NCBI GenBank assembly: GCA_000091165.1
Contig: FP565575.1
Span: 600,001-632,000 of the forward strand
DNA length: 32,000 bases
Direction of reading: 5' to 3'
Source of the DNA: Candidatus Methylomirabilis oxygeniifera
GTDB lineage: Bacteria; Methylomirabilota; Methylomirabilia; Methylomirabilales; Methylomirabilaceae
Part shown: positions 5,172 through 26,800 of the stretch, piece by piece
Position numbering within the stretch: the stretch's first letter is position 1
Layout of the letters: the number at the start of each line of letters is the position of its first letter
Position numbers and translations under genes: made by a program
The notes under the pieces: generated by a model
Told to the model about the DNA's origin: nothing
Databases searched by the model: none
What the model saw: the letters and a program-made list of their open reading frames with translations, nothing else

Positions 5172-5249
5172 GGCCGGCCTCGGGACAGGCAACCCTCCCG
5201 CGACCTCCGGACAGAACAGCACGACGCGCCCTTCGCGCATCCTATTACC
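5172..5249 (-). pseudogene. Orphan internal fragment of a DUF523 gene (duplicate of 3528-3605)
   Basis: 78 bp aligning to 3528-3605 with 4 mismatches by my count. Encodes EGRVVLFCPEVAGGLPVPRPAAEI with no start or surrounding gene body. Confidence 0.75.
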
Positions 5250-5665: not shown

Positions 5666-5787
5666 TTTCCATGTGCCGAACAGATATTAGCCGACGGTTC
5701 TCGGACGGACTTTACGATATTGGTGCGTGAAGTATAATACGATATTTGTGACGCATCTCTTGGAACATCCTTGAATCCACCGGGTCC

Positions 5788-5829
5788 GACTGGATTCCGT
5801 GTCAAGCACGGAATGACGGGCCAGAACAG
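5788..5829 (-). repeat. 42-bp hairpin element (ATTCCGTG-loop-CACGGAAT core), inverted copy of 11486-11527
   Basis: Its reverse complement is identical over 42/42 nt to 11486-11527. Confidence 0.85.
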
Positions 5830-5975
5830 AAGACACCTCGCAGCTCGTTGCGTGGAAGTTCATTAAAACGCTGGCACAGATACCAACTATTGGATATTCT
5901 GCTGGATAGACCTGTATGTAGTTGCCATGTTCCGCCAGAGCTCTGATTGGGTATAGCAACGGAGGTGAGAAACCA

Positions 5976-7569: not shown

Positions 7570-7660
7570 GAAAACCCCCTCGATCCCCCTTTGCGAAAGG
7601 GGGAGGCAAAGAGGCGTATCAGTAATACCCCCCTTACGAAAGGGGGGTCAGGGGGGTTTG
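7570..7660. repeat. Compound copy of the GC-rich palindromic element: one outer stem enclosing two inner CCCCC-TTxCGAAA-GGGGG hairpins
   Basis: Outer arms are AAAACCCCC (7571-7579) and GGGGGGTTT (7651-7659). Inner hairpins centre near 7595 and 7638. The 68-aa minus-strand ORF 7521-7727 is just its translation. Confidence 0.75.
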
Positions 7661-7727: not shown

Positions 7728-8498
7728 ATGGAATTAGGGCTGCGTGGGAAGGTTGTGGTGGTGACCGGTGGAAGCCGGGGGATCGGCAGGGCGATTGCTC
7801 TGGGCTTCGCCGAGGAGGGGTGTAAGCTCAGCATCTGTGGACGAGGTCTGCCGGCACTGGAAGAGGCGACTACGGCGATGAAAGCCTACGGGGTCGAACT
7901 GCTTGCAGTATCCACCGACCTCACCGATCCTCATGGAGCCGAGCGCTTCGTACAGGCGACGCTCGACCGGTATGGCCGGATCGACGTCCTGGTGAACAAC
8001 ATCGGCGGGTCGCGCCGCGGAGAGCTGGAAATCCTCTCAGAAGACGATTGGCGGGAAGCGTACGATCTGAACTTCTTTTCCACGCTGCGGATGGCCAAAC
8101 TGGTCGTACCGGTCATGAAGCGACAGGGCGGTGGGCGGATCATCAACATCGCCTCGATCTGGGGACGAGAGTCGGGAGGGGCGATGACCTACAACGCCTC
8201 CAAGGCGGCGGTGATTAGCCTCTCCAAGTCGCTCGCCAAGGAACTGGCGCCTCACAATATCCTGGTCAACAGCGTCGCGCCCGGTTCGACCCTCTTTCCG
8301 GGCGGCTCGTGGGACAGGCGGCAGCGCGAGAACCCGGCTCAGATCGCTCAGTTTATCAAGGATGAGCTGCCGCTGGGCCGATTCGGCCGCCCCGAGGAGG
8401 TCGCCGCCGTCGTGATCTTCCTGGCATCCCAACAGGCCAGCCTCGTGACCGGCGCATGCGTCACCGTCGACGGCTGTCAGTCGCGGTCGCTCATCTGA
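7728..8498 (+). CDS. Short-chain dehydrogenase/reductase (FabG-like)
   Basis: 256 aa. TGGSRGIG Rossmann motif, NNIG, YNASKAA catalytic motif. RBS AAGGGAGA. Confidence 0.9.
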   Translation: MELGLRGKVVVVTGGSRGIGRAIALGFAEEGCKLSICGRGLPALEEATTAMKAYGVELLAVSTDLTDPHGAERFVQATLDRYGRIDVLVNNIGGSRRGELEILSEDDWREAYDLNFFSTLRMAKLVVPVMKRQGGGRIINIASIWGRESGGAMTYNASKAAVISLSKSLAKELAPHNILVNSVAPGSTLFPGGSWDRRQRENPAQIAQFIKDELPLGRFGRPEEVAAVVIFLASQQASLVTGACVTVDGCQSRSLI

Positions 8499-8815
8499 CC
8501 GCCCGGCGTGGGCGCTGAATCCTGTGCAGGTATATTGAGATTGTCTTGGTCGGTGTTTGTGGGTGTGATAGTGACTCGAAACTGGTTGACAAGTCCCTTG
8601 AAGGGAAAGACAATCCCAGCAGGAACCGACACTCGAATGGCCGTCATATACTGATCAGCGCGCTTATGTCGGTGCGCGATCGGACGACGGCAAGTAACTC
8701 GGGCCGCTTCAAGCAGCGCGGTCTCATATTCGGCGACGCATCGATGGTCAGGGCTGGGGTAGGGTCTGGCGCTGTATCCAGGAACTGATTTCGACGAAGG
8801 ATTGGGAGGCGTATC

Positions 8816-9269: not shown

Positions 9270-9773
9270 ATGAGAACTGGACCGATCACAGCTTCCCAGG
9301 GCAGCGCAGTCGCCCGCCGAGTCCCCGCACGTCCGTGGCCTGGCACCGCACGCCCCGCCGAGCCGCAGCGGGTGGTCCCAGCAGTCCCACCCGATCCCGA
9401 GGTGCCCACAAAGCCGGCACGACGACGGTTCACCGCAGCCGAGAAGCTCCGCATCTTGAGACTCGCCGATGCCTGCACGGTGTCGGGGAGCCTGGGGGCG
9501 CTCTTACGCAAGGAGGGGCTGTACTCGTCGAACCTCACCACCTGGCGCCGACAGCGGGACGCGGGCACCCTGTCCGCCCTCACGCCCCAGAAGCGGGGCC
9601 GCAAACCGTCGATCCGCAGTCCACTCGCCCAGGAGCATGAGCAGCTTCGTCGGGAGAACGAACGGCTGACGCGGCGGCTCCGACAGGCCGAGCTCATCAT
9701 TGATGTTCAAAAAAAAGTTTCGCAGATCCTGGGGATCCCCCTGGCGACCTCCGAGGCAGGAGGCAGCGACTGA
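9270..9773 (+). CDS. IS3-family transposase OrfA (HTH plus leucine-zipper part)
   Basis: 167 aa. RRFTAAEKLRILRLADA...LRRENERLTRRLRQAELIIDVQKK is typical of IS3 OrfA. Confidence 0.85.
   Translation: MRTGPITASQGSAVARRVPARPWPGTARPAEPQRVVPAVPPDPEVPTKPARRRFTAAEKLRILRLADACTVSGSLGALLRKEGLYSSNLTTWRRQRDAGTLSALTPQKRGRKPSIRSPLAQEHEQLRRENERLTRRLRQAELIIDVQKKVSQILGIPLATSEAGGSD
9709..9716 (+). other. Probable -1 programmed ribosomal frameshift site (run of 8 A followed by G)
   Basis: The A-run is near the end of orfA. I checked that the -1 frame is open from 9710 through the orfB ATG at 9773, which would permit an OrfAB fusion as in other IS3 members. Confidence 0.6.
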
Positions 9774-10777
9774 TGGGCGCCGCGCAGACTCTGGCCTCCG
9801 AGGTAGGGATCAAACCGGCCTGCGACGCGTTCGGCACTTCTCGTGCCGGCTTCTACCGCGCCCAGACACGAACGCACGCTCCGATGGTGGAGCCAACGAG
9901 GCGCCCCAGCCCTCCACGGGCGCTGTCCGCCGATGAACGGCAGGGCGTGCTCGACCTGCTGCACGCCGACCGGTTTGCCGACCAGGCGCCCCATGAGGTC
10001 TATGCGACCCTCCTGGACGAAGGCGACTACCGCTGCTCCATCCGCACCATGTACCGACTCCTCAACGACCACACCGAGGTCAAAGAACGCCGGAACCAGT
10101 TGCGCCATCCGGTATATCAGAAACCGGAACTGCTGGCCACGGCCCCGAACCAGGTCTGGTCGTGGGACATTACGAAGCTCCTCAGCCCGGTGACGTGGTC
10201 CTACTTCTACCTCTATGTGATCCTGGACATTTTCAGCCGGTACGTCGTCGGCTGGATGGTCGCCTTGGCGGAATCGGCCGCCTTGGCCGAACGACTCATC
10301 CGTGAGACCTGCGCCAAACAGGGGATCGACAAAGGGCAGCTCACGATCCATGCGGACCGGGGCTCCTCCATGACCTCCAAGCCCGTGGCGTTCCTGTTGG
10401 CCGATCTGGGCGTCACCAAAACCCACAGCCGGCCGCATACGAGTGATGACAACCCGTACTCGGAAAGTCAGTTCAAGACCCTCAAGTACCGACCGGACTT
10501 CCCGGAACGGTTCGGGTGCATCGAGGATGCCCGGGGCTTCTGTCAGGACTTCTTCACCTGGTATAACACCGCGCATCGGCATACGGGCATTGGTCTCCTG
10601 ACACCGGAGGTCCTGCACTACGGCTTGGCGGACGAGGTCCGCGCGGCTCGCGCCGCGATCCTGCAGGCCGCCTATGAAACCCATCCGGAGCGGTTCGTCC
10701 GCAAGGTGCCGGTTCCCCCGGCGCTTCCGGAGGCCGCGTGGATTAACAAACCGAAGCCGATGGATACCGAGCGATGA
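9773..10777 (+). CDS. IS3-family transposase OrfB (DDE/rve integrase core)
   Basis: 334 aa. WSWDITKL, HADRGSSMTS and DNPYSESQFKTLKYRP give the D, D, E context. Confidence 0.9.
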   Translation: MGAAQTLASEVGIKPACDAFGTSRAGFYRAQTRTHAPMVEPTRRPSPPRALSADERQGVLDLLHADRFADQAPHEVYATLLDEGDYRCSIRTMYRLLNDHTEVKERRNQLRHPVYQKPELLATAPNQVWSWDITKLLSPVTWSYFYLYVILDIFSRYVVGWMVALAESAALAERLIRETCAKQGIDKGQLTIHADRGSSMTSKPVAFLLADLGVTKTHSRPHTSDDNPYSESQFKTLKYRPDFPERFGCIEDARGFCQDFFTWYNTAHRHTGIGLLTPEVLHYGLADEVRAARAAILQAAYETHPERFVRKVPVPPALPEAAWINKPKPMDTER

Positions 10778-10825
10778 GGCGCGACACTAAATTCGGACAC
10801 CAGGTGTCTCAAAATCATTGACACA

Positions 10826-11113
10826 TTCCGTCTCTCCGGATATGAAAACAGTCGCCTGGTCCGCTCATCGGTCGAGCGCGAGTTTATCATTATCGGAGAG
10901 GCTGTCGCAGCACTCGCCCGGGTTGCGCCGAAGACCTTCGATGCGATCACGCGAGCACGCAGGATCGTGGACTTCCGTAATCATCTCACCCATGAGTATC
11001 CGACCGTGGACAACGCTCTCGTGTGGGCGATTGTCGAGCATGATGTGCCGGTACTTCGCCGGGAGTGTGCCGTACTCATTCAGCGCGTTGTGCCTGAGGA
11101 CACGCCGAGCTAA
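10826..11113 (+). pseudogene. HEPN (DUF86) toxin gene, 3' part
   Basis: My translation: FRLSGYENSRLVRSSVEREFIIIGEAVAALARV...RRIVDFRNHLTHEYPTVD...VPEDTPS, stop TAA 11111-11113. Carries the R-x4-H HEPN motif (RNHLTH). Confidence 0.75.
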
Positions 11114-11115
11114 CC

Positions 11116-11466
11116 ATCGCCTCGATCTGGGGACGGGAGTCGGGAGGGGCGATGACCTACAACGCCTCCAAGGCGGCGGTGATCAGCCTCTCCAAGTCGC
11201 TCGCCAAGGAACTGGCTCCTCACAATATCCTGGTCAACAGCGTGGCACCCGGCTCGACTCTCTTTCCTGGTGGCTCGTGGGACCGACGACAGCGCGAAAA
11301 CCCGGCTCAGATCGCCCAGTTCATCAAAGACGAACTGCCGCTGGGCCGATTCGGCCGCCCCGAGGAGGTCGCGGCCGCCGTGGTCTTCCTGGCGTCCCAA
11401 CAGGCCAGCCTCGTGACCGGCGCATGCGTCACCGTCGACGGCTGCCAGTCGCGCTCGCTCATCTGA
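11116..11466 (+). pseudogene. Second copy of the SDR gene 3' end (351 bp, no 5' part)
   Basis: Aligns without gaps to 8148-8498. I count 24 mismatches but only 2 amino-acid changes (AAVVIF vs AAAVVF). Starts directly after the HEPN stop. Confidence 0.85.
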
Positions 11467-11485
11467 CCGTTCGCCTGTTCCTCTG

Positions 11486-11527
11486 CTGTTCTGGCCCGTC
11501 ATTCCGTGCTTGACACGGAATCCAGTC
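11486..11527 (+). repeat. 42-bp hairpin element, copy 2 (CTGTTCTGGCCCGTCATTCCGTGCTTGACACGGAATCCAGTC)
   Basis: Perfect reverse-complement match to 5788-5829. Confidence 0.85.
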
Positions 11528-11637
11528 TGGCTTTCTGGATACACGAACTCGCGGCAAGCCGCGAGGAATGAACCCTCTGTAGATTCACACGGTTCGAGAT
11601 TTGTCACCGAGAGGTCAGCGCCTCTATGGTTAGACCA

Positions 11638-11858
11638 ATGTCCTAACCCGAGACGGCAGAGGGGTTCGCAGCCGTCTGGACGCACCCGCGGAATTTTACT
11701 TCGGTCGGCCCTATCAGGATCAGGCTGACCGCTGGGGCGGCCTCTGCCGCTCTAGGCCTTGTTGAAATTCCGTTGACAAGTCTGTGAAATCGCAGGAAAC
11801 TCCAACCTATTGTGAGTATTTTTGTGACTGTGCTATACAGACCAGTATAATCATAGTT
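11638..11858 (+). repeat. R220 repeat, copy 1: long imperfect palindrome followed by a promoter-like 3' part
   Basis: Aligns end to end with 18206-18424, with scattered mismatches, a 3-nt indel and one more divergent 16-nt patch. Contains the stem GAGACGGCAGAGG (11650-11662) / CCTCTGCCGCTC (11741-11752) and an inner GGTCGGCC/GGCTGACC hairpin. Confidence 0.85.
11822..11851 (+). promoter_or_regulatory. Putative sigma70-type promoter (TTGTGA-N18-TATAAT) upstream of the TIR gene
   Basis: TATAAT at 11846-11851 is conserved in the other R220 copy. The -35 is weak and the spacing is 18 nt. Prediction by eye only. Confidence 0.35.
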
Positions 11859-11890
11859 CTGTCGCTCCGTGATGGAAAGGGCAGTCGGAA

Positions 11891-13069
11891 TTGGAAGTGA
11901 GCTTTCCTACAGACGCGGACAAGTTCCTTTTGCGGGAATGCCCATCTTGCGAACAGCGGTTTAAGGTCGTATTCGGGGAGGGGAGCGACGAGCTGATCTC
12001 GTGCTGCCCGTACTGCGGATACAACGAGCGCAACTGTTGGCACGCTCAGCCACAGGTCGAGTACATACAGGCAGTCGCCGCCAGCGTTGTTGTCGCCCCC
12101 GAACTCAAGAAACTGGAACGCCATCTCAAGGGAATGTCGAAGGGCATTCTCAAAATCGACGTCAATTCGAGCATCTCGTCGCCGCCACCGCCGCCTATGG
12201 AGACGGATGAACCGTTCGCCATCCTTCACTTTCCATGCTGCAACGAAACAATCAAGGTTGAACGTCGCGACCACCATTTTTGCGTTATCTGTGGTACGGA
12301 GGTTGACATGGGAATCAGCGACTCGAAGAAAGTGTTCTTGAGCCACAAAGGTATTGACAAGGATTTGGTAATTGACTTCAAGAAATCCTTGAAACTGGTT
12401 GGTTACGACCCGTGGCTAGACGAAGATGCGATGCCCGCGGGGACGTCACTTGAACGCGGGCTCCTTCAAAGTATGCGGGATTCTTGCGGCGTCGTGTTTT
12501 TTGTTACTCCATCGTTCAAAGACGAGGGGTTCCTGGAAACCGAAGTCAATTACGCGATTCAAGAGAAGCGGAAGAAGGGCGACAAATTCGCAATTGTGAC
12601 GCTGCAGTTTTGCGGCGCTGACGGCAACGTCGGGGAAATTCCTGAATTGCTCAAGACCTACGTCTGGAAGAAGCCTAAAACGCCACTTGAGGCGTTCGGG
12701 GAAATTGTTCGCGCGCTGCCGGTCGTGCCGGGAATCGTTGACTGGCGCGAAGGGATCACGGGTGTAGTTACCACTCCGAGGACGAAATCGACAACCACGC
12801 AGCTTTGCGATGAAGCAAAGGCGATTTTGAAGGCTGCAGTGGCCGGTGACGGAAGAATCACACACCTTCGCAACATGGGCGGTGAAAAAATTGGAGCGGG
12901 GGGTCAGTCGATGATACCGGACAATGATTCGCGCACCATTGCTCGTTGGGTTGGCGGCCTCGAAGATCTCCAACGTCGCCGATACGCCAAAGATCTCGGC
13001 CACAAGGGCGAGGTCTTCGAAGTCACCAGGGAAGGCTACGAAGCGGCAGACGAACTTCCAGACGCTTGA
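11891..13069 (+). CDS. Zn-ribbon / TIR domain protein with an unassigned C-terminal domain
   Basis: 392 aa. CPSC...CCPYC and PCC...CVIC cysteine pairs sit at the N-terminus. The TIR-like core spans aa 146-275 (KKVFLSHKG...WLDEDAMPAG...VVFFVTPSFKDEGFLETEVNYA). Start is TTG 11891 or GTG 11897; there is no in-frame ATG. Confidence 0.8.
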   Translation: MEVSFPTDADKFLLRECPSCEQRFKVVFGEGSDELISCCPYCGYNERNCWHAQPQVEYIQAVAASVVVAPELKKLERHLKGMSKGILKIDVNSSISSPPPPPMETDEPFAILHFPCCNETIKVERRDHHFCVICGTEVDMGISDSKKVFLSHKGIDKDLVIDFKKSLKLVGYDPWLDEDAMPAGTSLERGLLQSMRDSCGVVFFVTPSFKDEGFLETEVNYAIQEKRKKGDKFAIVTLQFCGADGNVGEIPELLKTYVWKKPKTPLEAFGEIVRALPVVPGIVDWREGITGVVTTPRTKSTTTQLCDEAKAILKAAVAGDGRITHLRNMGGEKIGAGGQSMIPDNDSRTIARWVGGLEDLQRRRYAKDLGHKGEVFEVTREGYEAADELPDA

Positions 13070-13085
13070 TGGAAAGGGGCACGCG

Positions 13086-13175
13086 ACAAAACTAGGCGAT
13101 CCACCAGAGCCGCGTTCAGGTTGTGCAGTATGGCTAGGCTGTATCGTCGCGGCCTGGTGATCCCGGTCGTTAGGG
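13086..13175 (+). other. attC-like imperfect palindrome S1
   Basis: ACAAAAC (13086-13092), 5-nt spacer, then GATCCACCAGAGCCGCG (13098-13114). That arm pairs with CGCGGCCTGGTGATC (13148-13162) as 15 bp with 2 bulged bases. A 6-nt spacer and GTTAGGG (13169-13175) follow. No T-tract. Confidence 0.4.
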
Positions 13176-13249
13176 GGTATTTTGTCAAGCGCCCCAGGGT
13201 GTTTGCGGGATTCATCTGATAGCTGGGCTCTGGAGAAGTGAAACCATAG

Positions 13250-15076
13250 ATGAGCATTCTGGGACGGTTCCTCAATCGACTGACAGAGAGTGAAGAAGGC
13301 GCTTACCTTGCGCCCCGGGAACGTGCATACGAGCATACGCGCGATGCGCGCACGCTAGAACCCGCCGGAGCAGCCATCGTCCGTTTTGCACCGACCTTCA
13401 AGCTTGAGCGGGAAGCAACGCAGTGGCCTGATGGCTTCTGGAACCACTTCAACTCCGCCAACTCTCACTACAAGCGAGGGCACTATCGCAAAGCCAAAGA
13501 GGCCTACTCATCGGCTCGTTCACTGCTTGCCGGCTATGGGGCCCTGGACACCGCCCTGCTCCGGACGTACAGAAAGCTGTACAGGGGCGCCATAGACAAG
13601 AAGCGTTGGGACGAAGCCTACCAGGAGCTATGCGAGCTATTCGAGACGCTTCCTTCTGGCGTCTCAGACACGGACAGGCGGCAGTTCAAAAAGGTTATGC
13701 AGGTGCTCAAGAAGTCCGATCCGGGCTTCTCGGGGCAACCCATGCCGCTGCAGGAACAGAGGCAAACGGGAGGCGAGAAGCCATCGGCGGAAGTGGAGTC
13801 CGCCTCCGGCAAAGACATCGCGGTGCAGCGAGATGAAACGTGGGAGCGACCCAAAGGCGAAAAGCCGCTCAGATGGCAAGAAAACCAGCTCACCTCAGGG
13901 GGGTTTCTTGCCGTGCACCGGAGGTATGACGAGCAGGCCGGAGGCTACCGCTCCTGCAATATCAGGACATACTCTTCACATGGAGACATCCAATCCGAGA
14001 AAGACTGGCTGCGCAGCTTCTACAGACTGAAGATCAGTAACACCGGAGAGCACCTGATAGGCTATTCTGACGATCTGCAGATGTCACTGTCGACGCTAAG
14101 CGGGGACATACTCGCCGAGCGAAGCGTCGCACGCGTCGCCGACGGCAACAAGTACCACATCCGATGCGTTGATCTATCTGAAGGCGGGATGCACTGCCTC
14201 TTCACATCCGCGACAAGGGCGTACCTTCTCGATCAAATGCTTCGCACGCTCTGTGTCTGGATAATGCCGCCCCCGCCTGGCTACCAGGTTGAGCACGGTG
14301 GCCAGGACGCTGGCCACCAACGTATAGAGAGGGCGTTTGCGACGCTGGAGCTGACAGGCCATCCGACGCAGGAGGAGATCAGAGCGCAGTTCCGGCAGAT
14401 GGTGTTCCGCTACCATCCGGACCGGAACCCTGGGGACACTGCGGCGCAGGAACGCACCAAGGAGATCATCGCAGCATACAAGATGGTGTCAGAGGAAGAC
14501 GTCGCTGCTGCCCTTGAGGGCCTGGGTGACAGAGAGTACTACTACCAGATTCTGCATGAGACGGAGCTGGATATAGGTGACACGGGCTACTCTGTGAAGC
14601 TCAGAATGTCCATGAGTGGTCCCGGCGATTGGATATATGCAACCCACATGACGGCGCGGGCGGAGAGGATCTATCTCGGCTGCTATTCCGGCTTGATCTA
14701 CTGCGTTGATCTTGACGGGAACGTCCTCAAAGTCTACCAGACGGATGCCCCGATCGACGGCATCGTGGAGCGAGGACAACATCTATACATATGGACGCAC
14801 ACCAGCCTGTACGTGTTGGGCCGCGACAAGGTCGTTAGCCACATCGATCTTAGGGGAGGCAGCCTCAAGTGTTTCGCAGAATGGGGGCTTATTGTCAAGA
14901 AAGGATCCTCCCTTGTTCTGTGCTCAGCAGACGGGACTTGGCTTGCGAATGTCCGTTTCCAAAGGGAGGCCCATGAGGTAGTCCCGACCTCAAGCGGTCT
15001 TGTCGCCTACACGACGAAAGAACGGTTTCGCGTCTCGCTGTCGGATGCACCTGCGGCTTCGTCTGCCAGATCGTAG
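13250..15076 (+). CDS. J-domain (DnaJ-like, HPD motif) protein with TPR-like N-terminus and beta-propeller-like repeats
   Basis: 608 aa. J-domain around aa 358-417 (FATLELTGHPTQEEIRAQFRQMVFRYHPDRNPGD...IIAAYKMV), with HPD at nt 14414-14422. It is flanked by beta-strand-rich repeats (IYCVDLDGNVLKVYQ, LYIWTHTSLYVLG). The fold assignment of the flanks is inference. Confidence 0.8.
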   Translation: MSILGRFLNRLTESEEGAYLAPRERAYEHTRDARTLEPAGAAIVRFAPTFKLEREATQWPDGFWNHFNSANSHYKRGHYRKAKEAYSSARSLLAGYGALDTALLRTYRKLYRGAIDKKRWDEAYQELCELFETLPSGVSDTDRRQFKKVMQVLKKSDPGFSGQPMPLQEQRQTGGEKPSAEVESASGKDIAVQRDETWERPKGEKPLRWQENQLTSGGFLAVHRRYDEQAGGYRSCNIRTYSSHGDIQSEKDWLRSFYRLKISNTGEHLIGYSDDLQMSLSTLSGDILAERSVARVADGNKYHIRCVDLSEGGMHCLFTSATRAYLLDQMLRTLCVWIMPPPPGYQVEHGGQDAGHQRIERAFATLELTGHPTQEEIRAQFRQMVFRYHPDRNPGDTAAQERTKEIIAAYKMVSEEDVAAALEGLGDREYYYQILHETELDIGDTGYSVKLRMSMSGPGDWIYATHMTARAERIYLGCYSGLIYCVDLDGNVLKVYQTDAPIDGIVERGQHLYIWTHTSLYVLGRDKVVSHIDLRGGSLKCFAEWGLIVKKGSSLVLCSADGTWLANVRFQREAHEVVPTSSGLVAYTTKERFRVSLSDAPAASSARS

Positions 15077-15078
15077 TC

Positions 15079-15154
15079 AGCCGAACACCCCCTAACCGGC
15101 GCTTGCTGCCAGACAGCGCTATGCGCTGCAGCAGAAGCGCCAATCGTTCGGCTT
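15079..15154 (+). other. attC-like imperfect palindrome S2
   Basis: AGCCGAAC (15079-15086) pairs with GTTCGGCT (15147-15154). Inner stem GGCGCTTGCTGC (15098-15109) / GCAGCAGAAGCGCC (15128-15141) has a 2-nt bulge. Also carries ACCCCCTAAC (15087-15096). Starts 3 nt after the stop codon. Confidence 0.45.
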
Positions 15155-15190
15155 GTTCGAGAACTATCAACAGAGTCGGGAGGGAACAGC

Positions 15191-16396
15191 ATGGGACTCC
15201 GTTTTCGAAGGTCAGTAAAGCTCGCTCCCGGTGTCCGAATGAACTTCAGCGGCAGTGGCGTAAGTTGGACGCTTGGCCCTAGGGGCGCGTCCGTCGGTAT
15301 CGGGAAGCGAGGGACGTATTTCAACACTGGTATTCCCGGAACGGGATTTTACGCCAGGGAGCGTATGGCGGGTTCCCGTGCAGGCAACCGGGCACGTGCA
15401 TCATCCTACTCAAACATATCCGTCTCTGTTGGAGTAGCAGATGATGGAACAGTGTATTTCCAGGACGCAGAAGGAAAGCCGCTCGCAGAACATTTGATCA
15501 ATACAGCAAAAAAGCAACAAGGTGACGCAATACGAGATCTTATTCAACAGAAATGTGATGAGATAAATGCACAAATCGAAGCGCTTGGGGAAATTCACGT
15601 CGATACTCCGAACCCCAATGTAAAGCTCCAATATCAACCACAGGAGTTTCCAGAATCTCCGCCCACAAAACCGGGTCCAAAAAAACCTGGGCTAATGGGC
15701 ATGTTCTTCAAGTCCGGACGAGAAAGAATAGAAAGAGAAAACCAAGCGAGAGAGCGTCAATTCGAGGAGGACCTTGAAAAATGGCGAGCGGCTAAATACC
15801 AGTTCGATGAAGCCGAGGAACATCGTAAGGATGTGATCGAACGAGGCATCTACACCAATGTGGAGATGATGGAAAACTTCTTGGAAGAGAACTTACAGAG
15901 CATTGTTTGGCCGCGTGAGACAATTTTATCAACAGAGATTCTTGATAACGGAAAAAGGGTGTTCGTCGATGTCGATCTCCCGGAGTTAGAAGGTATGCCG
16001 AGCAAAACAGCTTCGGCCCCCCAGCGAGGCTACAAGCTATCCGTAAAGGAAATGTCAGCCACACAGATTCAACGACTGTACATGCGTCATGTACACGGAA
16101 TCGGATTCAGAATTATAGGGGAAACCTTTGGTGCTTTACCCAACGCACAAGAAGTGGTGCTCTCCGCATATTCGCAACGTCCAGATCGAACAACTGGCCA
16201 TGTAACGGATGAGTATCTTTATTCGGTGCGAGTAACCAGGGCTTCATGGTCTCGCATAAATTTTGACAATCTGCAGAACTTGGATGTTGTAGATGCTCTT
16301 ACGCAGTTTGACTTGAAGAGAAACATGACAAAGACGGGGGCCTTCAAACCCATCGAACCATTCACCCCGAATGCACAGAAAATCGAACAGGCCTAA
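15191..16396 (+). CDS. DUF4236 domain protein
   Basis: 401 aa. The N-terminus MGLRFRRSVKLAPGVRMNFSGSGVSWTLGPRGASVGIGKRGTYFNTGIPGTGFY is the DUF4236 signature. A charged coiled-coil-like middle and an unassigned C-terminal domain follow. Confidence 0.8.
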   Translation: MGLRFRRSVKLAPGVRMNFSGSGVSWTLGPRGASVGIGKRGTYFNTGIPGTGFYARERMAGSRAGNRARASSYSNISVSVGVADDGTVYFQDAEGKPLAEHLINTAKKQQGDAIRDLIQQKCDEINAQIEALGEIHVDTPNPNVKLQYQPQEFPESPPTKPGPKKPGLMGMFFKSGRERIERENQARERQFEEDLEKWRAAKYQFDEAEEHRKDVIERGIYTNVEMMENFLEENLQSIVWPRETILSTEILDNGKRVFVDVDLPELEGMPSKTASAPQRGYKLSVKEMSATQIQRLYMRHVHGIGFRIIGETFGALPNAQEVVLSAYSQRPDRTTGHVTDEYLYSVRVTRASWSRINFDNLQNLDVVDALTQFDLKRNMTKTGAFKPIEPFTPNAQKIEQA

Positions 16397-16468
16397 CGAG
16401 ATACTCCAACAGAAGGCGCTGTCGGCGCTCCGCGCCGCCAGGGCCGCGGCTGAGCTTCGTCGTTGGGT
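16391..16468 (+). other. attC-like imperfect palindrome S3
   Basis: GCCTAAC (16391-16397) overlaps the TAA stop. TCCAAC (16405-16410) pairs with GTTGGG (16462-16467) and GAAG with CTTC, with bulges. GC-rich centre contains a GGCGC-TCC-GCGCC hairpin. Confidence 0.45.
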
Positions 16469-16505
16469 TACCTGCGCCAATGTCAGTTGGTCGGGTTGAT
16501 ACTAC

Positions 16506-17192
16506 ATGGACTCTCGCTACATTGCTGCAGTTAGTATGGCGTTCGTAATAGCCATAGGTTTCCTCAGGACGCTCACCGCCTATAGAGGGTTGAAGAAGCG
16601 CAGGGACTTTGTATCTGAGTTCTCTGACAAGTTCGTGGAATTTGCCAATAATCCAGATTTCGACGGCAAGCTGTATTATTGGCTGACTCACAACTCGGTT
16701 GCCATTCAATCGGAACTTGGTCCCTTGGGTGTTGCATCCTACAAACCGCCGGCAATTGATTACGTGATACACAATTACCAGATGATCGTCAATCTTCTGC
16801 CAGAACTGAGAAGAAAGAAGACTGAGAATCGTTTGTTTCGCGATGGGGAAATCCACCGCGAATATGCCACAATGTGCCTGGATATCTTGGTCAGGTATCT
16901 GGGTGTAATCGATAGATGGCTACAAGAGGCGAGAGATGAGCTTCGAAACCCGTTTATCTGGCTTGGCCAAGGTGTTCAATCCATTCTGCTTTTGCCCGCC
17001 TATGTCCTGCACTGGTTTGGCTTACTTGGTGCATCTGCTCTGGGGACACTGACAAGAAACATCCTTGTCAAAAGCATTTCGTTCATTGTAGCTGTCGTGG
17101 GTCTTTTGAGTAGCTTGGTTACACTCCTCGTTGGATGGGAGGAGACGGCAAGAATAATTGGGCCTCTATGGCGCGACGCCTTTGGCCCATAA
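16506..17192 (+). CDS. Multi-pass membrane protein, no family recognised
   Basis: 228 aa. Hydrophobic segments YIAAVSMAFVIAIGFL, SILLLPAYVLHWFGLLGASALG and ISFIVAVVGLLSSLVTLLVGW. Same strand as the three upstream genes. Confidence 0.6.
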   Translation: MDSRYIAAVSMAFVIAIGFLRTLTAYRGLKKRRDFVSEFSDKFVEFANNPDFDGKLYYWLTHNSVAIQSELGPLGVASYKPPAIDYVIHNYQMIVNLLPELRRKKTENRLFRDGEIHREYATMCLDILVRYLGVIDRWLQEARDELRNPFIWLGQGVQSILLLPAYVLHWFGLLGASALGTLTRNILVKSISFIVAVVGLLSSLVTLLVGWEETARIIGPLWRDAFGP

Positions 17193-17201
17193 GTCATGGC
17201 A

Positions 17202-17266
17202 GCCCAACATCACGTGCATCCGACCGCTTCGCGCTATGTGCTCGCGGCTTATGCGCTGCGTTCGCT
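17202..17266 (+). other. attC-like imperfect palindrome S4
   Basis: GCCCAAC (17202-17208), 5-nt spacer, then GTGCATCCGAC (17214-17224). That arm pairs with GCTTATGCGC (17247-17256). A 3-nt spacer and GTTCGCT (17260-17266) follow. Centre is CCGCTTCGCG...CGCGG. Confidence 0.45.
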
Positions 17267-17450
17267 GATTTCGGGGACACCATGCTGTATGCTTCACTTC
17301 GGGATTGAGTGGGAATCGGTATGGTATCCTAATATCCTGGGTCGGAAGTTCGGCGAAGAAATAGGCGCCGCATGTGGTGTCACTCCCGCGAAGCTTGTCC
17401 CCGCGGGCTTTAGGCGGGGAGCGGGAATCCAGAACTTCTCTTACTCGCTG
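17249..17450 (+). repeat. R200 repeat, copy 1 (structured, apparently non-coding)
   Basis: Aligns with 19072-19281. Contains the imperfect inverted repeat GGACACCATGCTG / CGGTATGGTATCC and a GTCAyTCCCGCG...GGGAATCC double hairpin. Confidence 0.85.
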
Positions 17451-17632
17451 GATTCCGGCTCGCGCCCGCTACGCGGCCCCCGACCTGATCGGGGGCGGAA
17501 TGACGTCGGAATATCTGCAACGAATTTCAGAAATGGCTCTTCCGGATTGAGTGTGGGTAAAGATCCAAACCTCCGCAATGAAAGTAGATCGCGGTCTTGA
17601 AGTGCTCGACGTTGCGGCGTCAAGACCTCGCC

Positions 17633-17732
17633 GGTCGCCACCGTCGTGATCTTTCTGGCATCCCAACAGGCCAGCCTCGTGACCGGCGCATGCGTCACCG
17701 TCGACGGCTGTCAGCCGCGTTCGCTCATCTGA
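17633..17732 (+). pseudogene. Third copy of the SDR gene 3' end (100 bp)
   Basis: Aligns to 8399-8498 with 4 mismatches by my count and ends at the same TGA. Preceded by the hairpin GGTCTTGA (17593-17600) / TCAAGACC (17620-17627). Confidence 0.8.
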
Positions 17733-17814
17733 CGCCCGGGCCACGCTTGACAGGGAAGACGTTTATCTATACAAATCTCCGCCTGGAAGGCGAACAAACG
17801 ACAGAGGGTGCAGT

Positions 17815-18027
17815 ATGAAAAAAATCGTTGCTGAACCGTATCGCGATATCGATTTCTCCCGTGCCAAGCGAGGCGCAGTCATCAAGCCGGAGCCTGGCAA
17901 GACCAAGATTTCTATCCGGCTCGACAATGCCATCCTCGACTATTTTCGCTCACTGGCTGACGAGGCGGGTGGCGGGAGTTATCAGACACTGATCAACAAC
18001 GCCCTGTCCGCGTATATCCAGCAGTAA
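17815..18027 (+). CDS. BrnA-like (DUF4415/CopG-like) antitoxin, orphan
   Basis: 70 aa. KISIRLDNAILDYFRSLADEAGGGSYQTLINNALSAYI matches the BrnA pattern. No BrnT-like ORF lies upstream. Confidence 0.7.
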   Translation: MKKIVAEPYRDIDFSRAKRGAVIKPEPGKTKISIRLDNAILDYFRSLADEAGGGSYQTLINNALSAYIQQ

Positions 18028-18205
18028 TCGGTCCTGGAGGCGGTTCGACGGGTTGTCAGGGAGGAACTCGTTCTCCCGAAAGCGGGGCGTGATTTAACTC
18101 GACGGTCGACAGGACGCCGCGCGAGCGCGACGTAAGCCAGGTAACGCACCGGGCACTTCGTTTCACTGCCGACAACGCCCTCGTCACCTGTTCCGACTCC
18201 CTCCA

Positions 18206-18424
18206 TTGTCCTAAACCGAGACGGCAGAGGGGTTCGCAGCCTTGGACGCACCCGCGGAATCTTACGTTGGTCGGCCCTATTAGGATTAGGCCGACCGCTG
18301 TGGCGGCCTTTGCCGCTATAGGCCTTGTTGAAATTCCGTTGACAAGCCTGTGAAATCGCAGGAAACTCCAACGTATTGTGAGTAGCCTTGAGACTATACG
18401 ATACAGACCAGTATAATCATAGTT
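18206..18424 (+). repeat. R220 repeat, copy 2
   Basis: See 11638-11858. The inner hairpin is perfect here (GGTCGGCC/GGCCGACC). Confidence 0.85.
18388..18417 (+). promoter_or_regulatory. Putative sigma70-type promoter (TTGAGA-N18-TATAAT) upstream of the antitoxin/ParE pair
   Basis: Same position within R220 as 11822-11851. By eye only. Confidence 0.35.
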
Positions 18425-18478
18425 AGCTATCAAGAAGAGCAACTTGCTGACTTGGTCAAAGGAGCGTATCATCAGGCT

Positions 18479-18700
18479 ATGAGTACGCCAACCATCGACA
18501 TTGAGAAGCTCTCCTCCGAGGAACGCCTTCGCCTTATTGAGGACCTGTGGGAGAGCCTTCGCACGAGACCGGACGCGGTCCCGCTGACCCGCGCGCAGCA
18601 GGACGAACTCGATCGCCGTCTTGATGAACTCGACCGGGGCGAAACCGAAACGGTCCCTTGGGAAGAGGTCAAGCGACGGCTCCGTGATCGGCCCGAGTGA
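18479..18700 (+). CDS. Addiction-module antitoxin (small acidic helical type paired with ParE/RelE toxins)
   Basis: MSTPTIDIEKLSSEERLRLIEDLWESL...LDRRLDELDRGE. The ORF is open from TTG 18452 but I prefer ATG 18479. Its stop overlaps the toxin GTG start (GTGA). Confidence 0.75.
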   Translation: MSTPTIDIEKLSSEERLRLIEDLWESLRTRPDAVPLTRAQQDELDRRLDELDRGETETVPWEEVKRRLRDRPE

Positions 18701-18996
18701 CTCGATCCGGGTTTCGGCCAGCAGCCTCGGCCGATGTCCAGGCCGCCTACGAGTGGTACGAATCGCAACGTCCGGGCCTCGGCAACGAGTTCATCACTGC
18801 CGTGGATACCGCCGTCGCATCTATTCTTGCGTTCCCAAAGGCTTACGCCGTGGTTCATCGTGGTGCCCGTCGCGTCTTGCTCGAACGCTTTCCATATGGC
18901 CTCTACTACCGTATCGACGGTGCGAGGATTGTTGTCGTCGCATGCATGCACGCGGCGCGCGATCCAAGGCGGTGGCGTTCGCGCCTTGATGGTTAA
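18697..18996 (+). CDS. RelE/ParE-family type II toxin
   Basis: 99 aa. AASADVQAAYEWYESQRPGLGNEF...RVLLERFPYGLYYRIDGARIVVVACMHAARDP is a typical ParE-like pattern. Confidence 0.8.
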   Translation: MTRSGFRPAASADVQAAYEWYESQRPGLGNEFITAVDTAVASILAFPKAYAVVHRGARRVLLERFPYGLYYRIDGARIVVVACMHAARDPRRWRSRLDG

Positions 18997-19089
18997 CACG
19001 CGCGTCAACCCGCCGGTCCGTCCGGCTGCGCCGGTTACGTCTCCATGGAGCGAGTGCGGGCGGCCCTCGGGTTACGCGCCCCGTTCGCT
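18991..19089 (+). other. attC-like imperfect palindrome S5
   Basis: GGTTAAC (18991-18997) overlaps the TAA stop. GCGCGTCAACC (19000-19010) pairs with GGTTACGCGC (19070-19079) as 10 bp with one bulged C. GTTCGCT lies at 19083-19089. Internal CTCCATGGAG palindrome. Confidence 0.4.
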
Positions 19090-19281
19090 GATTTCGGGGA
19101 CACCATGCTGTATGCTTCACTTCGGGGTTGAGTGGGAATCGGTATGGTATCCTCATGTCCTAGGTCGAAAGTTCGGCGAAGAAATAGACGCCGCATGTGA
19201 TGTCATTCCCGCGACACTTGTCCCTGCAGGCTTTAAGCGGGGAGGGGGAATCCGGAACTCCTCTTACTCTCTTACTCGCTG
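19072..19281 (+). repeat. R200 repeat, copy 2
   Basis: See 17249-17450. Carries a tandem duplication of CTCTTACT near its 3' end. Confidence 0.85.
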
Positions 19282-19339
19282 AAAAGGGGTCAAGTCTGCC
19301 CTTGACTCACATTGGTGGTCCTGGTTCTGTCTTCCGACG

Positions 19340-19447
19340 TTGCGATTCCTTCGCATTGCATACCCCGGCGCCTACTCTCATGCCATGAACCGCGGCTTGG
19401 CCGACCAGGATGCGTTCACGAATCGATTCGACGGCAGGCTAGCCGAG
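19340..19447 (+). pseudogene. Remnant of a Y1 (IS200/REP-associated tyrosine transposase-like) transposase N-terminus
   Basis: RIAYPGAYSHAMNRGLADQDAF resembles the conserved RIxxPGxxYHVxxRG...F N-terminal motif. Similarity is lost after about 35 aa, and the ORF runs antisense into hicA. Confidence 0.45.
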
Positions 19448-19536
19448 CGCTCGATGTCTCCTTGTGGGGGACGATCTTTTGTAGGGGAAGGCGTTGGGAC
19501 GGTGCGAAGAGAGTGTGAAAGAGGCGCGGATCGCCG

Positions 19537-19764
19537 TTACGATTTCAGGAGCTTGGTAAATTCAGCGTCAGTGAGATTGGCTTGTCGGAGCATGCGGTGG
19601 AACAGGGCGGTCGGGATGTCTCGACCATGCTGATGGCTTACTCGCACTTGGAGAATCGTTCCATCCGTGAGGATCTTCCGCCAGGTTTCGTGCTTCTTCG
19701 ATCGAACTAACAGAAATCCAGCCTTATGCAGTACGCTTCGGAAATCAGCATAGGTCGATGGCAT
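19537..19764 (-). CDS. hicA: HicA-family mRNA interferase toxin
   Basis: 75 aa. LHKAGFLLVRSKKHETW...VSHQHGRDIPTALFHRMLRQANL matches the HicA pattern. Confidence 0.8.
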   Translation of the reverse strand: MPSTYADFRSVLHKAGFLLVRSKKHETWRKILTDGTILQVRVSHQHGRDIPTALFHRMLRQANLTDAEFTKLLKS

Positions 19765-23879: not shown

Positions 23880-26800
23880 TCAAATCCCCCCGTGGCCCCC
23901 CTTTGCAGGGGGGAGTGGGGGGTTTTCGTCGTTGGCCAGATAGCGCCCCACCGTGTCGAGCAGCACCTGTTTCTTCAGTGGCTTTGAGAGATAATCATCC
24001 ATTCCCTGCTCCAGGCACTGCTCCCGATATCCGGCAATTGCATGCGCCGTCATCGCGATGATCGGTACCCGTCCTACGCCATGCTCGCGTTCCCATGACC
24101 TGATGGCTCGAGTTGCCTCAAATCCATCCATTTCCGGCATCTGCACGTCCATCAGGATGAGATCATAGCGGGCCTGCCTGACCGCGTTTACTGCTGCCGC
24201 CCCATTCCCGGCAATCACGACCCAGTACCCGACCTTTTCCAGAATCCTTCTCACCAGGTTCTGATTGTCTACGTTGTCCTCGACCAACAGGATGTGTCGC
24301 TGCAGTGTGGGGCGTCTCGCCTCCGGGATTGACGGCTCAGCGGGCGCCTCCGCCTCCTCCGCCCTTCGAAGCAGCCCCATCAACATATCCAAGAGCTTTG
24401 ACTGTTTGACCGGCTTGGTCAGGACCACCGTTATCCCCAGATCCTCCCTTGTCGCGGTGGGCAGCCCTTCCCATGACGAGAGCATCACCAACTTGATGTC
24501 CTGAAGTCTTGGGTCCTGTCGGATCGCCCGAGCCACGGCTGCCCCGTCCATGTCCGGCATGTGATGATCTAGAATGACGATCTGGTAGCCCGCGTGTGAC
24601 GTGCGCAACAGCGCCAGAGCCTCCTCCCCGCCTGCCGCTTCCTCTACGGTCATGCCCCATGTGTGCAGCGTTCTGCGTAGGATGAGCCGATTGGTTGGAT
24701 TGTCGTCCACGACCAGCACCGCCACGCCGCGTAGATCAGGATACGTCTCGCGTCCCGCTCTCACCGTCTCAGCTTCGGGCTCCGCTACGGTCACGACAAG
24801 ATCACAATGGAAGGTGGACCCCTTGCCGACCTCGCTCTCCACCCATATCCGCCCTCCCATCAGCTCCATGAGGGCCTTCGAGATGCTCAAGCCCAGTCCG
24901 CTCCCCCCAAAACGCCGCGCTGTGGTGGCATCAGCCTGAGCAAACGGGTCAAAGATCCTGGCCTGCTGATGTGTGGGAATGCCGATCCCCGTATCGGCCA
25001 CCGAAATATGGACCCCGATTCGCCCTGGCGCTTCGACCTGCGTCCGCTCAACCTGGATGGTCACCTCCCCGCGCTCCGTGAACTTGATGGCATTGCCCAC
25101 CAGGTTCACCAATACCTGCCTCAGGCGCATGGGGTCGCCGAGCACTCGCGAGGGCAGCGCGGGATCTACATAGCATGTCAGTTCCAGCCCCTTTTTCTGG
25201 GCCCGAATACTCAAGACCTCGGCTACGCCTTCAACCACTTCCCGCAGGTGAAAGGCCGTTTCCTCAATCGCCATCTGACCCGCCTCAATCCTGGAGAGAT
25301 CGAGGATATCGTTGATGACCGTCAGCAGCGCCTCGGAGGAGGATTGCACCACCTGTAGGAACTCTCGTTGCTCCGTCGTGAGCGCGGTGTCAAGGGTGAG
25401 CTCGGTCATCCCGATGATGGCGTTCAGCGGCGTTCGGATCTCATGGCTCATTTTGGCCAAGAACTCACCCTTGGCGCGGCTGGCCGCTTCGGCAACGGAT
25501 TTCGCCTGCTGCATGGCTGCCTCCGCCCGCTTGCGCTCTTCAACTTCCCGTCTCAGCTCTTCGGTATGACGTTGCAGCGAACCCCAGAGTCGGCTGTGCT
25601 TCACGACAATGGCTACTTGATCGGCCAGGGGGAGCAGGCGCTCAATGTCATGTGCGGCGTAGGTTCCAGCCGTCAGACTGTCGAGGAAGAAGACCCCCAG
25701 CACTTCTCCTCCGACCAGAAGGGGAAGGCTAAGCGAGGATTGGACCCCCTCCTGCGCCAGATAGGTCTCATCGCGGAACCCGGCCTCCTTTGCCAGATCG
25801 CGCGTAAGCCGGGGCTCCCCGTGGATGAGCATCCACTCGACCGCCGTATCGTTCGTCTTCGGCCAGCTCTGTTCCTGGTGGGAAGCAAGTGGAGAATGAG
25901 CGACGGAGTAGGCGACGATGAGCTGATCGCCTTCCGGGAGAATCACCCCCAGGCGGTCATAGGGGACGTACGACTCTACTGCCCGGGCAAATGTCCCGAA
26001 GACCTCGTCGAGTTCGAGCGATCGGTTCAGCAGCCGGCTCAGCGTGAAGAGCGCCTCCCACCGCGCGGCGAGGTCCTTTGTGGTCGCATACAGTTGAGCT
26101 AGTTCGGCATTGGCGGCTGCCAGGTCCGCGTCCGCGCGCTTTCGGGCGGTCACGTCTTGCTTGATCGCGATGAAATGGGTGATCTGACCTCGATCGTCTC
26201 GAACAGGGGCAATGGTCTGCTCCTCGGTGTAGAGGCTGCCGTCCTTCCGTCGGTTGATCATCTCGCCGTGCCAGATCTGCCCGGTGAGAATCGTCTCCCA
26301 GAGGGTCTTGAAGAATGCCGTGTCATGTTGATCCGACTTGAGGAGGCGTAGATTCTGACCGATCAGTTCTTGGGCTGTATAGCCGGTAAGCGGGGTAGCG
26401 GCAGGATTGGTCCAGACGATCGTCCCCTCCCGGTCGGTGATGACGATACCGTTGGCCGCAGCCTCCAATGCCGTAGTTTGCAGGTGCAGTTGGACTTCTG
26501 CCTGTTTGCGGGCGGTGATGTCACGAATCGCGGCCATTACGATCCCGCCATCCTTGGCAGGATAGTGGCTCAGCTTGATGTCCACAGGGAACTCGCGCCC
26601 ATCCTTGCGCACGCCGTAGAGTTCCAGCCCCACCCCCATGGGCCGCGTCACGGGGTGCGTGAGGTAGGTGGCACGATCCGCTGCATGCCGGCTGCGGAGA
26701 CGCTCGGGCACCAGCATCTCAAGGGGTGCGCCGTGTAGCTCCTGCTGGGTATAACCGAACAGCCGCTCGGCTTCATCGTTGGCGAGCACGATACGTCCTG

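Follow-up and report, generated by a model that had tools for sequence, protein, structure and literature searches.

The window analyzed here, a 32,000-nt stretch of the Candidatus Methylomirabilis oxygeniifera (M. oxyfera) genome (FP565575.1, positions 600,001–632,000, + strand; its own numbering is used below), contains two units in which the same pair of repeats, R220 and R200, borders different genes. Its sequence shows 100% identity to M. oxyfera assemblies. We interpret this locus, with a probability of roughly 0.78, as a decayed chromosomal integron of the CALIN (a cluster of attC sites that has no integron-integrase) type. It would retain a remnant of the integrase gene, intI, in the same orientation as the cassettes (the "inverted" arrangement), with R220 and R200 as its proximal and distal borders and with two units in tandem. 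The interpretation is carried by homology of part of R220 to intI, by sharp boundaries at a G/TT step (the slash marks the boundary), by attC-like sites and by synteny; from these we infer that IntI inserted the cassettes.

In the arrangement that we propose, R220 would be the integron platform, made up of the last ∼40 codons of a dead intI, hairpins, a cassette promoter (Pc) and attI, and the crossover G/TT would be its last conserved base step. The downstream genes would have entered at attI as circular cassettes, each ending in an attC-like imperfect palindrome. R200 would start at the G/TT of the last attC and would ancestrally have stood beside glgP. The whole locus (the 3' end of a neighboring SDR gene, the platform, the cassettes and R200) would have been stacked twice in tandem in M. 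oxyfera, and the attI-proximal cassettes would differ between the units, as expected from new entry at attI.

R220 resembles the platform of an integron

Comparison of the window with itself delimits the repeats as follows (a and b denote the copies of the first and second unit).

R220: 11635–11858 and 18203–18424, + strand; 224 nt, 89.7% identity
R200: 17240–17449 and 19063–19272, + strand; 210 nt, 89% identity

Both pairs are real, lie nearly where a preliminary description had placed them, and keep the same order and orientation in the two units. Other genomes shift their left edges: the homology of R220 to other genomes reaches further left, to about 11566, and comparison with two further copies of R200 redraws its left edge at 17259/19082 instead of 17240/19063. 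The features of R220 are listed below.

11566–11700, +: remnant of intI (ΔintI), reading IHTVRDLSPRGQRLYG-stop-TNVLTRDGRGVRSRLDAP; left part of R220a, as aligned at the DNA level with its counterparts in L022 and FeB30
11703–11730, +: GC-rich hairpin GGTCGGCC...GGCTGACC, directly after the intI stop position; a second hairpin extends to about 11752
11760–11780, +: invariant block TGTTGAAATTCCGTTGACAAG, 21 nt, with GTTGA repeated 11 nt apart; identical in all eight aligned R220 copies
11822–11851, +: sigma-70-like promoter, the Pc candidate of R220a; TTGTGA-18-TATAAT, 10 of 12 matches, ending 5 nt before the crossover G
11852–11862, +: putative attI crossover region, G at 11856; the homology of eight contexts ends at CATAG/TT
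18203–18424, +: R220b, with a shorter ΔintI remnant (VLNRDGRGVRS, 18208–18240), the hairpin at 18269–18296 and the block at 18326–18346
18388–18417, +: R220b promoter candidate TTGAGA-18-TATAAT, followed by attI with the crossover G at 18422

Judged by sequence homology, the 5' part of R220 is what decay has left of the final ∼40 codons of a gene for an integron integrase. Two related copies, at locus L022 and in FeB30, are still readable as protein at the intI 3' end. At L022, the best-preserved copy, the left part of R220 encodes the C-terminus of a tyrosine recombinase, and the closest solved relative of this 45-aa C-terminal fragment is the Vibrio integrase IntI4/VchIntIA (PDB 2a3v, residues 283–317 of 320; E = 4.7e-11). 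The match takes in the IntI C-terminal tail RGGxGVxSP, and that to XerD is weaker (E = 7e-6 only). A second L022 fragment is from the N-terminal part of intI and matches TIGR02249 (positions 1–51) and the integron integrase PRK15417. The remnant is thus a homologue of intI rather than of recombinases of the XerC/D type. R220a and R220b both align to the L022 intI end at the DNA level, and a profile of the IntI C-terminus finds its two best hits in a six-frame translation of the window at 11634–11684 and 18208–18240. In absolute terms these scores are low, as the window holds only short remnants; BLASTP of the window's own remnant against the IntI fragment gave no alignment where the profile search did match. 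No other recombinase open reading frame (ORF) was found in the window.

Two further observations concern recombinase fragments. A third weak match to a recombinase C-terminal profile lies at 19606–19662 (+; GGRDVSTMLMAYSHLENRS; domain E = 0.07), opposite a HicA-like ORF, and may be due to chance. The N-terminal (51 aa) and C-terminal (45 aa) intI fragments of L022 (3291–3431 and 5520–6179 of that locus) are ∼2.6 kb apart, and between them stand several same-strand genes, taken by eye to be likely toxin–antitoxin genes, together with an IS110-like piece.

The GC-rich hairpin possibly served as the intI terminator. It is deleted in the bin48 copy of R220 and is hence dispensable. The difference between its two copies that had been pointed out in the preliminary description is present, with GGTCGGCC pairing to GGCTGACC at 11703–11730 and GGTCGGCC to GGCCGACC at 18269–18296, and one related R220 copy has a change on both sides of the inner hairpin that preserves one pair. 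The invariant block is a candidate protein-binding site. Both R220 copies also carry the TATAAT with a −35-like hexamer 18 nt upstream that had been noted before; these are the two best promoter-like matches in 11400–19600, and TTGnGA-18-TATAAT is kept in all copies and would, as the candidate Pc, read into the array. A sigma-54 promoter was considered for R220 and dropped since, by eye, it is unconserved between copies.

Homology at the right edge of R220 stops in eight genomic contexts at ...TATAATCATAG/TT, and the eight diverge 0–5 nt past G/TT into unrelated genes. In integrons, crossover at attI and attC sites takes place at G/TT. The sequences at the eight junctions are GTTCTGT, GTTAGCT, GTTATGC (twice), GCTATGC, GTTAGAC, GTTGTGC and GTTCGGC; what follows GTT is mostly purine-rich or ATGC, and the bin48 junction is the canonical GTTAGAC. 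The right edge of R220, next to intI, therefore looks like an attI site. The earlier suggestion of a modular docking site was thus essentially right for R220, in substance because R220 contains a predicted attI: a promoter candidate stands directly ahead of it, and eight payloads start from the identical G/TT.

The payloads look like gene cassettes

We scanned the whole window for pairs of R'' (xxxxAAC) and R' (GTTxxxx) boxes that fold as hairpins, using a home-made procedure that replaced an earlier scan with a rigid L-box rule, which had returned nothing useful. The sites of a cassette array are expected to be imperfect palindromes of 57–141 nt that carry the boxes R'' RYYYAAC and R' GTTRRRY and immediately follow same-strand ORFs lacking promoters. 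A CALIN comprises two or more attC sites; here attC-like sites stand at 13086–13175, 15080–15152, 16391–16468, 17202–17266 and 19002–19077, and the putative cassettes that they close are as follows.

11857–13169, +: cassette 1; TIR protein, ORF 11891–13069 (Pfam TIR_2; PADLOC PDC-M14A/TIR models)
13086–13175, +: cassette 1 attC-like site, an imperfect palindrome; R'' ACAAAAC at 13086, R' GTTAGGG; cassette start GTTCTGT, own-start complement 6/7
13170–15146, +: cassette 2; TPR/DnaJ protein, ORF 13250–15076; start GTTAGGG
15080/15090–15152, +: cassette 2 putative attC; R'' CCCTAAC (15090) or GCCGAAC, R' GTTCGGC
15147–16462, +: cassette 3; DUF4236 protein, ORF 15191–16396; start GTTCGGC
16391/16404–16468, +: cassette 3 putative attC; R'' GCCTAAC at 16391, R' GTTGGGT; own-start complement 6/7
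16463–17260, +: cassette 4; 228-aa protein without a family match, ORF 16506–17192; start GTTGGGT
17202–17266, +: cassette 4 attC-like site; R'' GCCCAAC at 17202, R' GTTCGCT; own-start complement 6/7, weak fold
18423–19083, +: ParDE-type cassette; antitoxin 18479–18700 (Unstab_antitox), ParE 18697–18996 (ParE_toxin)
19002–19077, +: ParDE attC-like palindrome GCGTcAAC...GTTACGC; outer stem of 10–12 bp with one bulge; a second possible R', GTTCGCT, at 19083–19089

The genes named in the preliminary description, four including a TIR protein in one unit and an antitoxin/ParE pair in the other, are borne out, and the sequence between flank and payload is indeed unrelated in the two units. The 5.3-kb TIR block is not one payload, as had been assumed, and instead falls into four separate cassette-like units. 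PADLOC gave no match for three of the four proteins of this block. Of the three strongest AAC...GTT hairpins that the window contains, one (15080–15152) comes just past the stop codon of the DnaJ-type gene and another (16404–16468) just past that of the DUF4236 gene; that of cassette 2 is the strongest of all, with −25.4 kcal/mol over 73 nt. The R'' boxes of all four TIR-block cassettes are within about 20 nt of stop codons. In each of the four, R'' complements the start of its own cassette (G plus the first six bases), exactly in cassette 2 (CCCTAAC against GTTAGGG, 7/7), with a rough joint probability by chance of 1.7e-7. Units that had formerly existed as circles, each closed at its attC, would be expected to show this pattern. 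The TIR block thus looks like four single-gene cassettes, and the antitoxin/ParE pair like a fifth with weaker signals.

A precedent for the architecture comes from two unrelated metagenome contigs, L025 and L029, in which same-strand arrays come after an ORF for a truncated IntI C-terminus; the home-made scan finds attC-like R''/R' pairs (xxCTAAC...GTTAGxx) in their intergenic gaps. The L029 array also holds an IS110-family element. Many short IntI C-terminal ORFs (42–79 aa) occur in metagenomes (L025–L030, proteins P0001–P0120), although their shortness may partly reflect the HMMER length correction.

R200 begins at a putative cassette junction

R200 is followed by a different segment in each of the two M. 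oxyfera units.

17261–17449, +: R200a, non-coding, beginning at the G/TT of the preceding attC-like site; core 17261–17382 with a long hairpin
17450–17632, +: X, with repetitive extragenic palindromic (REP)-like sequence, after R200a; adjoins glgP in bin48 (L031) and L023
19084–19272, +: R200b, the second non-coding copy, after the last attC-like site
19273–19536, +: Y, after R200b; IS200/RAYT-like N-terminal remnant IAYPGAYSHAMNRGL at 19312–19420, identified by eye

The left edge of R200 is identical in four contexts, C-G/TTCGCTG, and the sequence before it differs. In one of these, L032, R200 stands directly after a canonical attC, GTCTAAC...GTTCGCT. The core is 89–94% identical between copies, and the two diverged ones, in L031 and L032, were found by searching with a translated spurious ORF; the 22-nt core had no hit in metagenome or viral collections. 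We rejected a coding role for R200: although both copies keep one frame open, their 23 differences are not biased towards third positions, falling 4/11/8 on codon positions 1/2/3. The 3' part of R200a is REP-like (GTCAYTCCCGCG...GGGAATCCAG) and differs between genomes. R200 may be a non-coding cassette that became fixed long ago, or it may be the array's distal flank; the earlier alternative of neighboring non-coding cassettes comes close for R200, which is non-coding and starts at a cassette junction. Because X adjoins glgP in bin48 (L031) and L023, X would be the ancestral distal flank of the array.

REP/REPIN elements are short palindromes rich in GC that come as inverted pairs, number many copies in a genome and go with a RAYT transposase. 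No Pfam hit was obtained for the RAYT-like remnant in Y. The sequence of Y also follows the payload in L019, where there are two similar RAYT-like fragments (L019 1–412). An inverted pair, GAGCGGGAATCCAG and CTGGATTCCGGCTC, spans the R200a/X boundary at 17419–17461, and related REP-like copies lie at 5790, 11516 and 19246; the 6 matches against 3.1 expected by chance are not significant. Elsewhere in the window, REP-like palindromes (GTCATTCC...GGAATCCAG) at 5772–5833 and 11482–11543 form a 62-nt inverted repeat 5.6 kb apart, and C-run/G-run hairpins (CCCCCC...GGGGGG) stand just past gcvPA (1621–1666), endoV (7613–7658) and a hybrid kinase gene (23881–23926). L031 has a C-run/G-run-like motif in place of the REP-like part of R200.

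R220 stands before differing genes in other genomes

The 20-nt invariant core of R220 was scanned against 185,579 species-representative genomes and JGI metagenome contigs, and copies were confirmed by BLAST and nhmmer. There were two true hits in the species genomes and four in the JGI contigs; the species-genome scan did not return M. oxyfera's own genome, so that these counts exclude its copies. R220 is present once or twice per contig, and viral contigs gave no hit. Matches in L012/L021 and L020 were discarded as chance 20-mer matches. All copies point into differing downstream genes:

L011 (Methylomirabilis bin48): AbiJ-like/PDC-S32 protein and a type I restriction–modification system
L022: EcoRV-like endonuclease and Dam-like methylase
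L023: DUF4160/DUF2442 pair
L024: coiled-coil protein and DUF262-like protein (by eye)
L019: two proteins of unknown function
L010 (Methylomirabilota FeB_30): glutamate dehydrogenase

The bin48 locus allows the whole arrangement to be compared with that of M. oxyfera. The segment thiD–endoV–SDR is syntenic with L011 at 86% identity, and R220 begins 65 nt past the stop codon of the orthologous SDR. L031 overlaps L011 at 99.95% identity, which gives the bin48 order SDR, R220, an array of ∼13 kb, R200, X and glgP. On the evidence of this overlap, R220 and R200 are the two borders of an array in a second species. The pairing that the two M. oxyfera units would lead one to look for in related genomes thus holds in bin48, and it does not extend to L019, L022 and L023, in which R200 is undetected. 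There the payload is followed in R200's place by Y (L019) or an IS3 (L022), or by X and glgP, as in the L023 order R220, DUF4160/DUF2442, X, glgP. The R220 3' part and the R200 core are 90–94% identical between M. oxyfera and bin48, above the 81–86% of the flanking housekeeping genes, which may mean that the docking unit as a whole has been under selection or has been exchanged horizontally.

In FeB_30, the PNPOx-like gene that is next after gdh is closely followed, at 1909–1968 of L010, by a palindrome of 60 nt whose R''/R' boxes, GGCTAAC...GTTAGCC, pair perfectly. It is a possibility that gdh of FeB_30 also lies in a cassette-like unit.

The locus is stacked in tandem in M. oxyfera

The gene map comprises gcvH, gcvPA, gcvPB, a thiouracil desulfurase gene, thiD, endoV and SDR. 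These are followed by a possible HepT toxin fragment interrupted by an IS3, a second copy of the SDR 3' end, R220a, the four genes of the TIR block, R200a and X, and then by a third SDR 3' copy, BrnA, R220b, the antitoxin/ParE pair, R200b, Y, a minus-strand HicA/PHD-like pair and glgP.

7728–8498, +: SDR gene (Pfam adh_short/adh_short_C2), the left neighbor of the integron locus in bin48
11115–11475, +: SDR 3' copy 2; 355 nt, 93% identical to 8147–8501; heads the unit with R220a
17633–17741, +: SDR 3' copy 3, the last 109 nt; heads the second stacked unit
17815–18027, +: BrnA-type antitoxin (Pfam BrnA_antitoxin), standing where the intI body would be in unit b

The SDR 3' end occurs three times, at 8147–8507 (the true gene end), 11115–11475 and 17633–17741, with 86–94% mutual identity; that a copy stands ahead of each R220 was missed in the preliminary description. 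Both units are headed by an SDR 3' end, and R200a is followed by X, the segment that adjoins glgP in bin48 and L023, which together indicate that the locus was stacked in tandem. R220a is 92–93% identical to the copies of other organisms and 90% identical to R220b. That R220a is nearer to other organisms than to R220b, with SDR fragments at 86–94%, argues against a recent duplication within the genome. Probably one M. oxyfera unit was imported from a relative as an allelic locus, or the duplication is old; allelic integrons from different lineages may have been stacked in one chromosome.

One assembled sequence, L007 (Logan ERR13927237), matches the window at 18383–19082 and 17260–17684 and so joins ParE, R200a and X via a 45-nt block common to both R200 copies. 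It may stem from a circle that was excised, from a tandem copy or from a chimera of the assembly. We do not take it as proof of recombination between the R200 copies since both sides are 100% window sequence, the join falls inside the 45-nt identical block, and a k-mer chimera is equally possible.

Other features of the neighborhood are of interest in themselves. AGCTAAC, an R''-like heptamer, stands directly before SDR 3' copy 2 (11108–11114); its exact complement, GTTAGCT, is the start of the ParDE cassette, and the + strand of the window contains AGCTAAC just once. The IS3-family element comprises orfA (9270–9773) and orfB (9773–10777), and the HepT-like toxin fragment beside it (10814–11113) is a weak partial match under the family cutoff. 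Public M. oxyfera assemblies break at the IS3, with contig ends at window positions 10704 and 10732. Within the thiouracil desulfurase gene, an internal 84-nt piece (3525–3608) is duplicated 1.6 kb away at 5159–5242 with 93% identity; three small + strand ORFs without a Pfam match lie between the duplicates (3874–4973), and an R''-like heptamer, CGCTAAC (5150–5156), precedes the second of them. This region may be another cassette-like insertion.

Weighing the alternatives

Several observations weigh against the integron reading. Neither the window nor any copy of R220 contains an intact intI, and the remnant in the window has a stop codon or frameshift; the gene region for the IntI-specific insertion is deleted, and the locus is thus not a complete integron, in which an intact intI would encode the IntI-specific extra domain. 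The attC calls come from our own scan rather than the IntegronFinder covariance model. Complementarity of R'' to the cassette's own start is modestly specific: in the cross-table of starts and R'' boxes the diagonal is the row maximum, but two rows are tied. Folding is weak or irregular at the sites that follow the TIR gene, the 228-aa gene and ParE, and the ParE palindrome folds no better than shuffled sequences, with an own-start match of only 5/7. At the bin48 and L022 loci no attC-like site rose above the scan threshold, and their payloads may not all be classical cassettes. In FeB_30, R220 stands before a housekeeping gene, glutamate dehydrogenase. No GTT marks the right edge of R200, which itself lacks a recognizable attC.

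Some of these points would sit comfortably with a variable hotspot whose conserved homology arms allow payloads to be swapped by homologous recombination after DNA uptake, with no site-specific recombination, and with a tandem arrangement that arose by Campbell-type integration or unequal crossing-over. R220 and R200 would then be nothing more than conserved intergenic stretches that flank an island of defense and toxin–antitoxin genes. Such a hotspot would account for the SDR 3' copy at the head of every unit, for repeats that are all 86–95% identical, for the greater similarity of R220a to other organisms' copies than to R220b, for the joining of ParE, R200a and X inside an identical block in L007, for an intI that is dead in all copies, and for the bin48 and L022 loci without attC-like sites above threshold. 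As an explanation of the locus it is nevertheless unlikely, as it leaves unexplained the intI remnant in R220, the eight payload starts at one exact G/TT, the AAC...GTT palindromes matching their own starts after every TIR-block gene, and the start of R200 at G/TT after attC in four contexts. Homologous recombination is best seen as a complementary process behind the stacking and not as the origin of the structure. Equal ends around different contents, found twice in M. oxyfera and again in bin48, with IS3 and RAYT-like remnants close by, also bring to mind a non-autonomous mobile element (a mobile insertion cassette, a shell like a miniature inverted-repeat transposable element, or a transposon) with R220 and R200 as its ends and a transposase acting in trans; the preliminary description had likewise offered a mobile shell. 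We consider this extremely unlikely: there are no terminal inverted repeats between the start of R220 and the end of R200 and no target-site duplications, R200 is undetected downstream of R220 in L019, L022 and L023, R220 is low-copy in the genome and metagenome collections, the R200 core lacks hits in the metagenome and viral sets, and the locus is syntenic (SDR ... glgP) across species.

It is very unlikely, too, that R220 or R200 or both are structured non-coding RNA genes (a small RNA, a leader or a riboswitch-like element) acting as regulators of the genes downstream. The fold of R220a is somewhat better than that of shuffled sequences (z = −2.8), the hairpins are conserved with one compensatory change, and the R200 core has a long conserved hairpin. 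Against this, there is no Rfam match at the gathering score in the whole window, or at E up to 5 in 11400–19600; the covariation term of the R220 alifold structure is unfavorable, with double changes in 2 of 52 pairs; R200 has a z of only −1.2; and bin48 does without the R220 hairpin. R220 also ends at the predicted transcription start, so that most of it would be outside the downstream mRNA. A search for tRNA and tmRNA genes found none.

Within the integron interpretation, the timing of cassette entry deserves comment. When the alignment is read by eye against the readable copies of L022 and FeB30, the intI remnants of R220a, R220b, L019 and L024 seem to have a one-base gap in common, and their first cassettes differ, all from the identical G/TT. 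If the shared lesion is real, the differing first cassettes would imply turnover at attI after pseudogenization, presumably via an IntI acting in trans. We regard it as possible, if doubtful, that the orphan attI kept capturing cassettes after its own integrase had died; either IntI in trans or swaps by homologous recombination could have changed the payloads after the lesion.

Relation to known integrons

The closest known systems are CALIN elements and decayed sedentary chromosomal integrons with an intI pseudogene, as classed by IntegronFinder (Cury et al. 2016, PMC4889954, which also describes integron architecture); the chromosomal integrons of Xanthomonas are a genus-level example (bioRxiv 10.1101/2025.06.18.660453). 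An M. oxyfera group IIC-attC intron has been listed as not inserted in a cassette array (PMC3001079). As in a CALIN, attC-bounded cassettes would here occupy a fixed locus with no working integrase in cis and an intI remnant beside the array, and the cassettes hold for the most part small genes without a known function, plus a toxin–antitoxin pair. Unlike the CALIN examples, only the last ∼40 codons of intI are left, the platform and distal border occur twice in tandem with about 90% identity, and the host belongs to the phylum NC10/Methylomirabilota.

In class 1 integrons, reportedly as set out by Stokes and Hall in 1989, 5'- and 3'-conserved segments bracket the cassettes, and the proximal segment carries intI, Pc and attI. 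The R220/R200 locus likewise has two conserved segments around variable cassettes. It differs in that there is no sequence relationship, R200 is short and non-coding instead of qacEΔ1/sul1, and the element is chromosomal and not on a transposon. In the inverted group of integrons, such as that of Treponema denticola, intI and the cassettes point one way, and attI lies downstream of the intI 3' end. R220, L025 and L029 show this order, with intI, then attI, then cassettes on one strand; the likeness is one of gene order, the integrase body being missing here. The "inverted integrase" group is named in PMC3575428, and Treponema integrons are treated in PMC3607928.

Sedentary chromosomal integrons store anti-phage defense cassettes (bioRxiv 10.1101/2024.07.02.601686), and the R220 payloads are similarly mostly predicted defense or addiction modules (TIR, ParDE, AbiJ-like/PDC-S32 with type I restriction–modification, EcoRV-like restriction–modification and DUF4160/DUF2442). 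We found no paper that describes such an integron in Ca. Methylomirabilis. What had appeared as a shell with exchangeable contents would become a recognizable integron mechanism, adding a chromosomal integron with TIR, restriction–modification and toxin–antitoxin cassettes to an NC10 methane oxidizer, Ca. Methylomirabilis. For annotation, the four genes of the TIR block should not be assumed to be one operon or defense system. The locus would also be a natural case of the fate of an integron after the loss of intI, in which the platform and distal unit are conserved at 90–94% across species and the first cassettes differ, and it bears on whether CALIN-type arrays stay active in trans.

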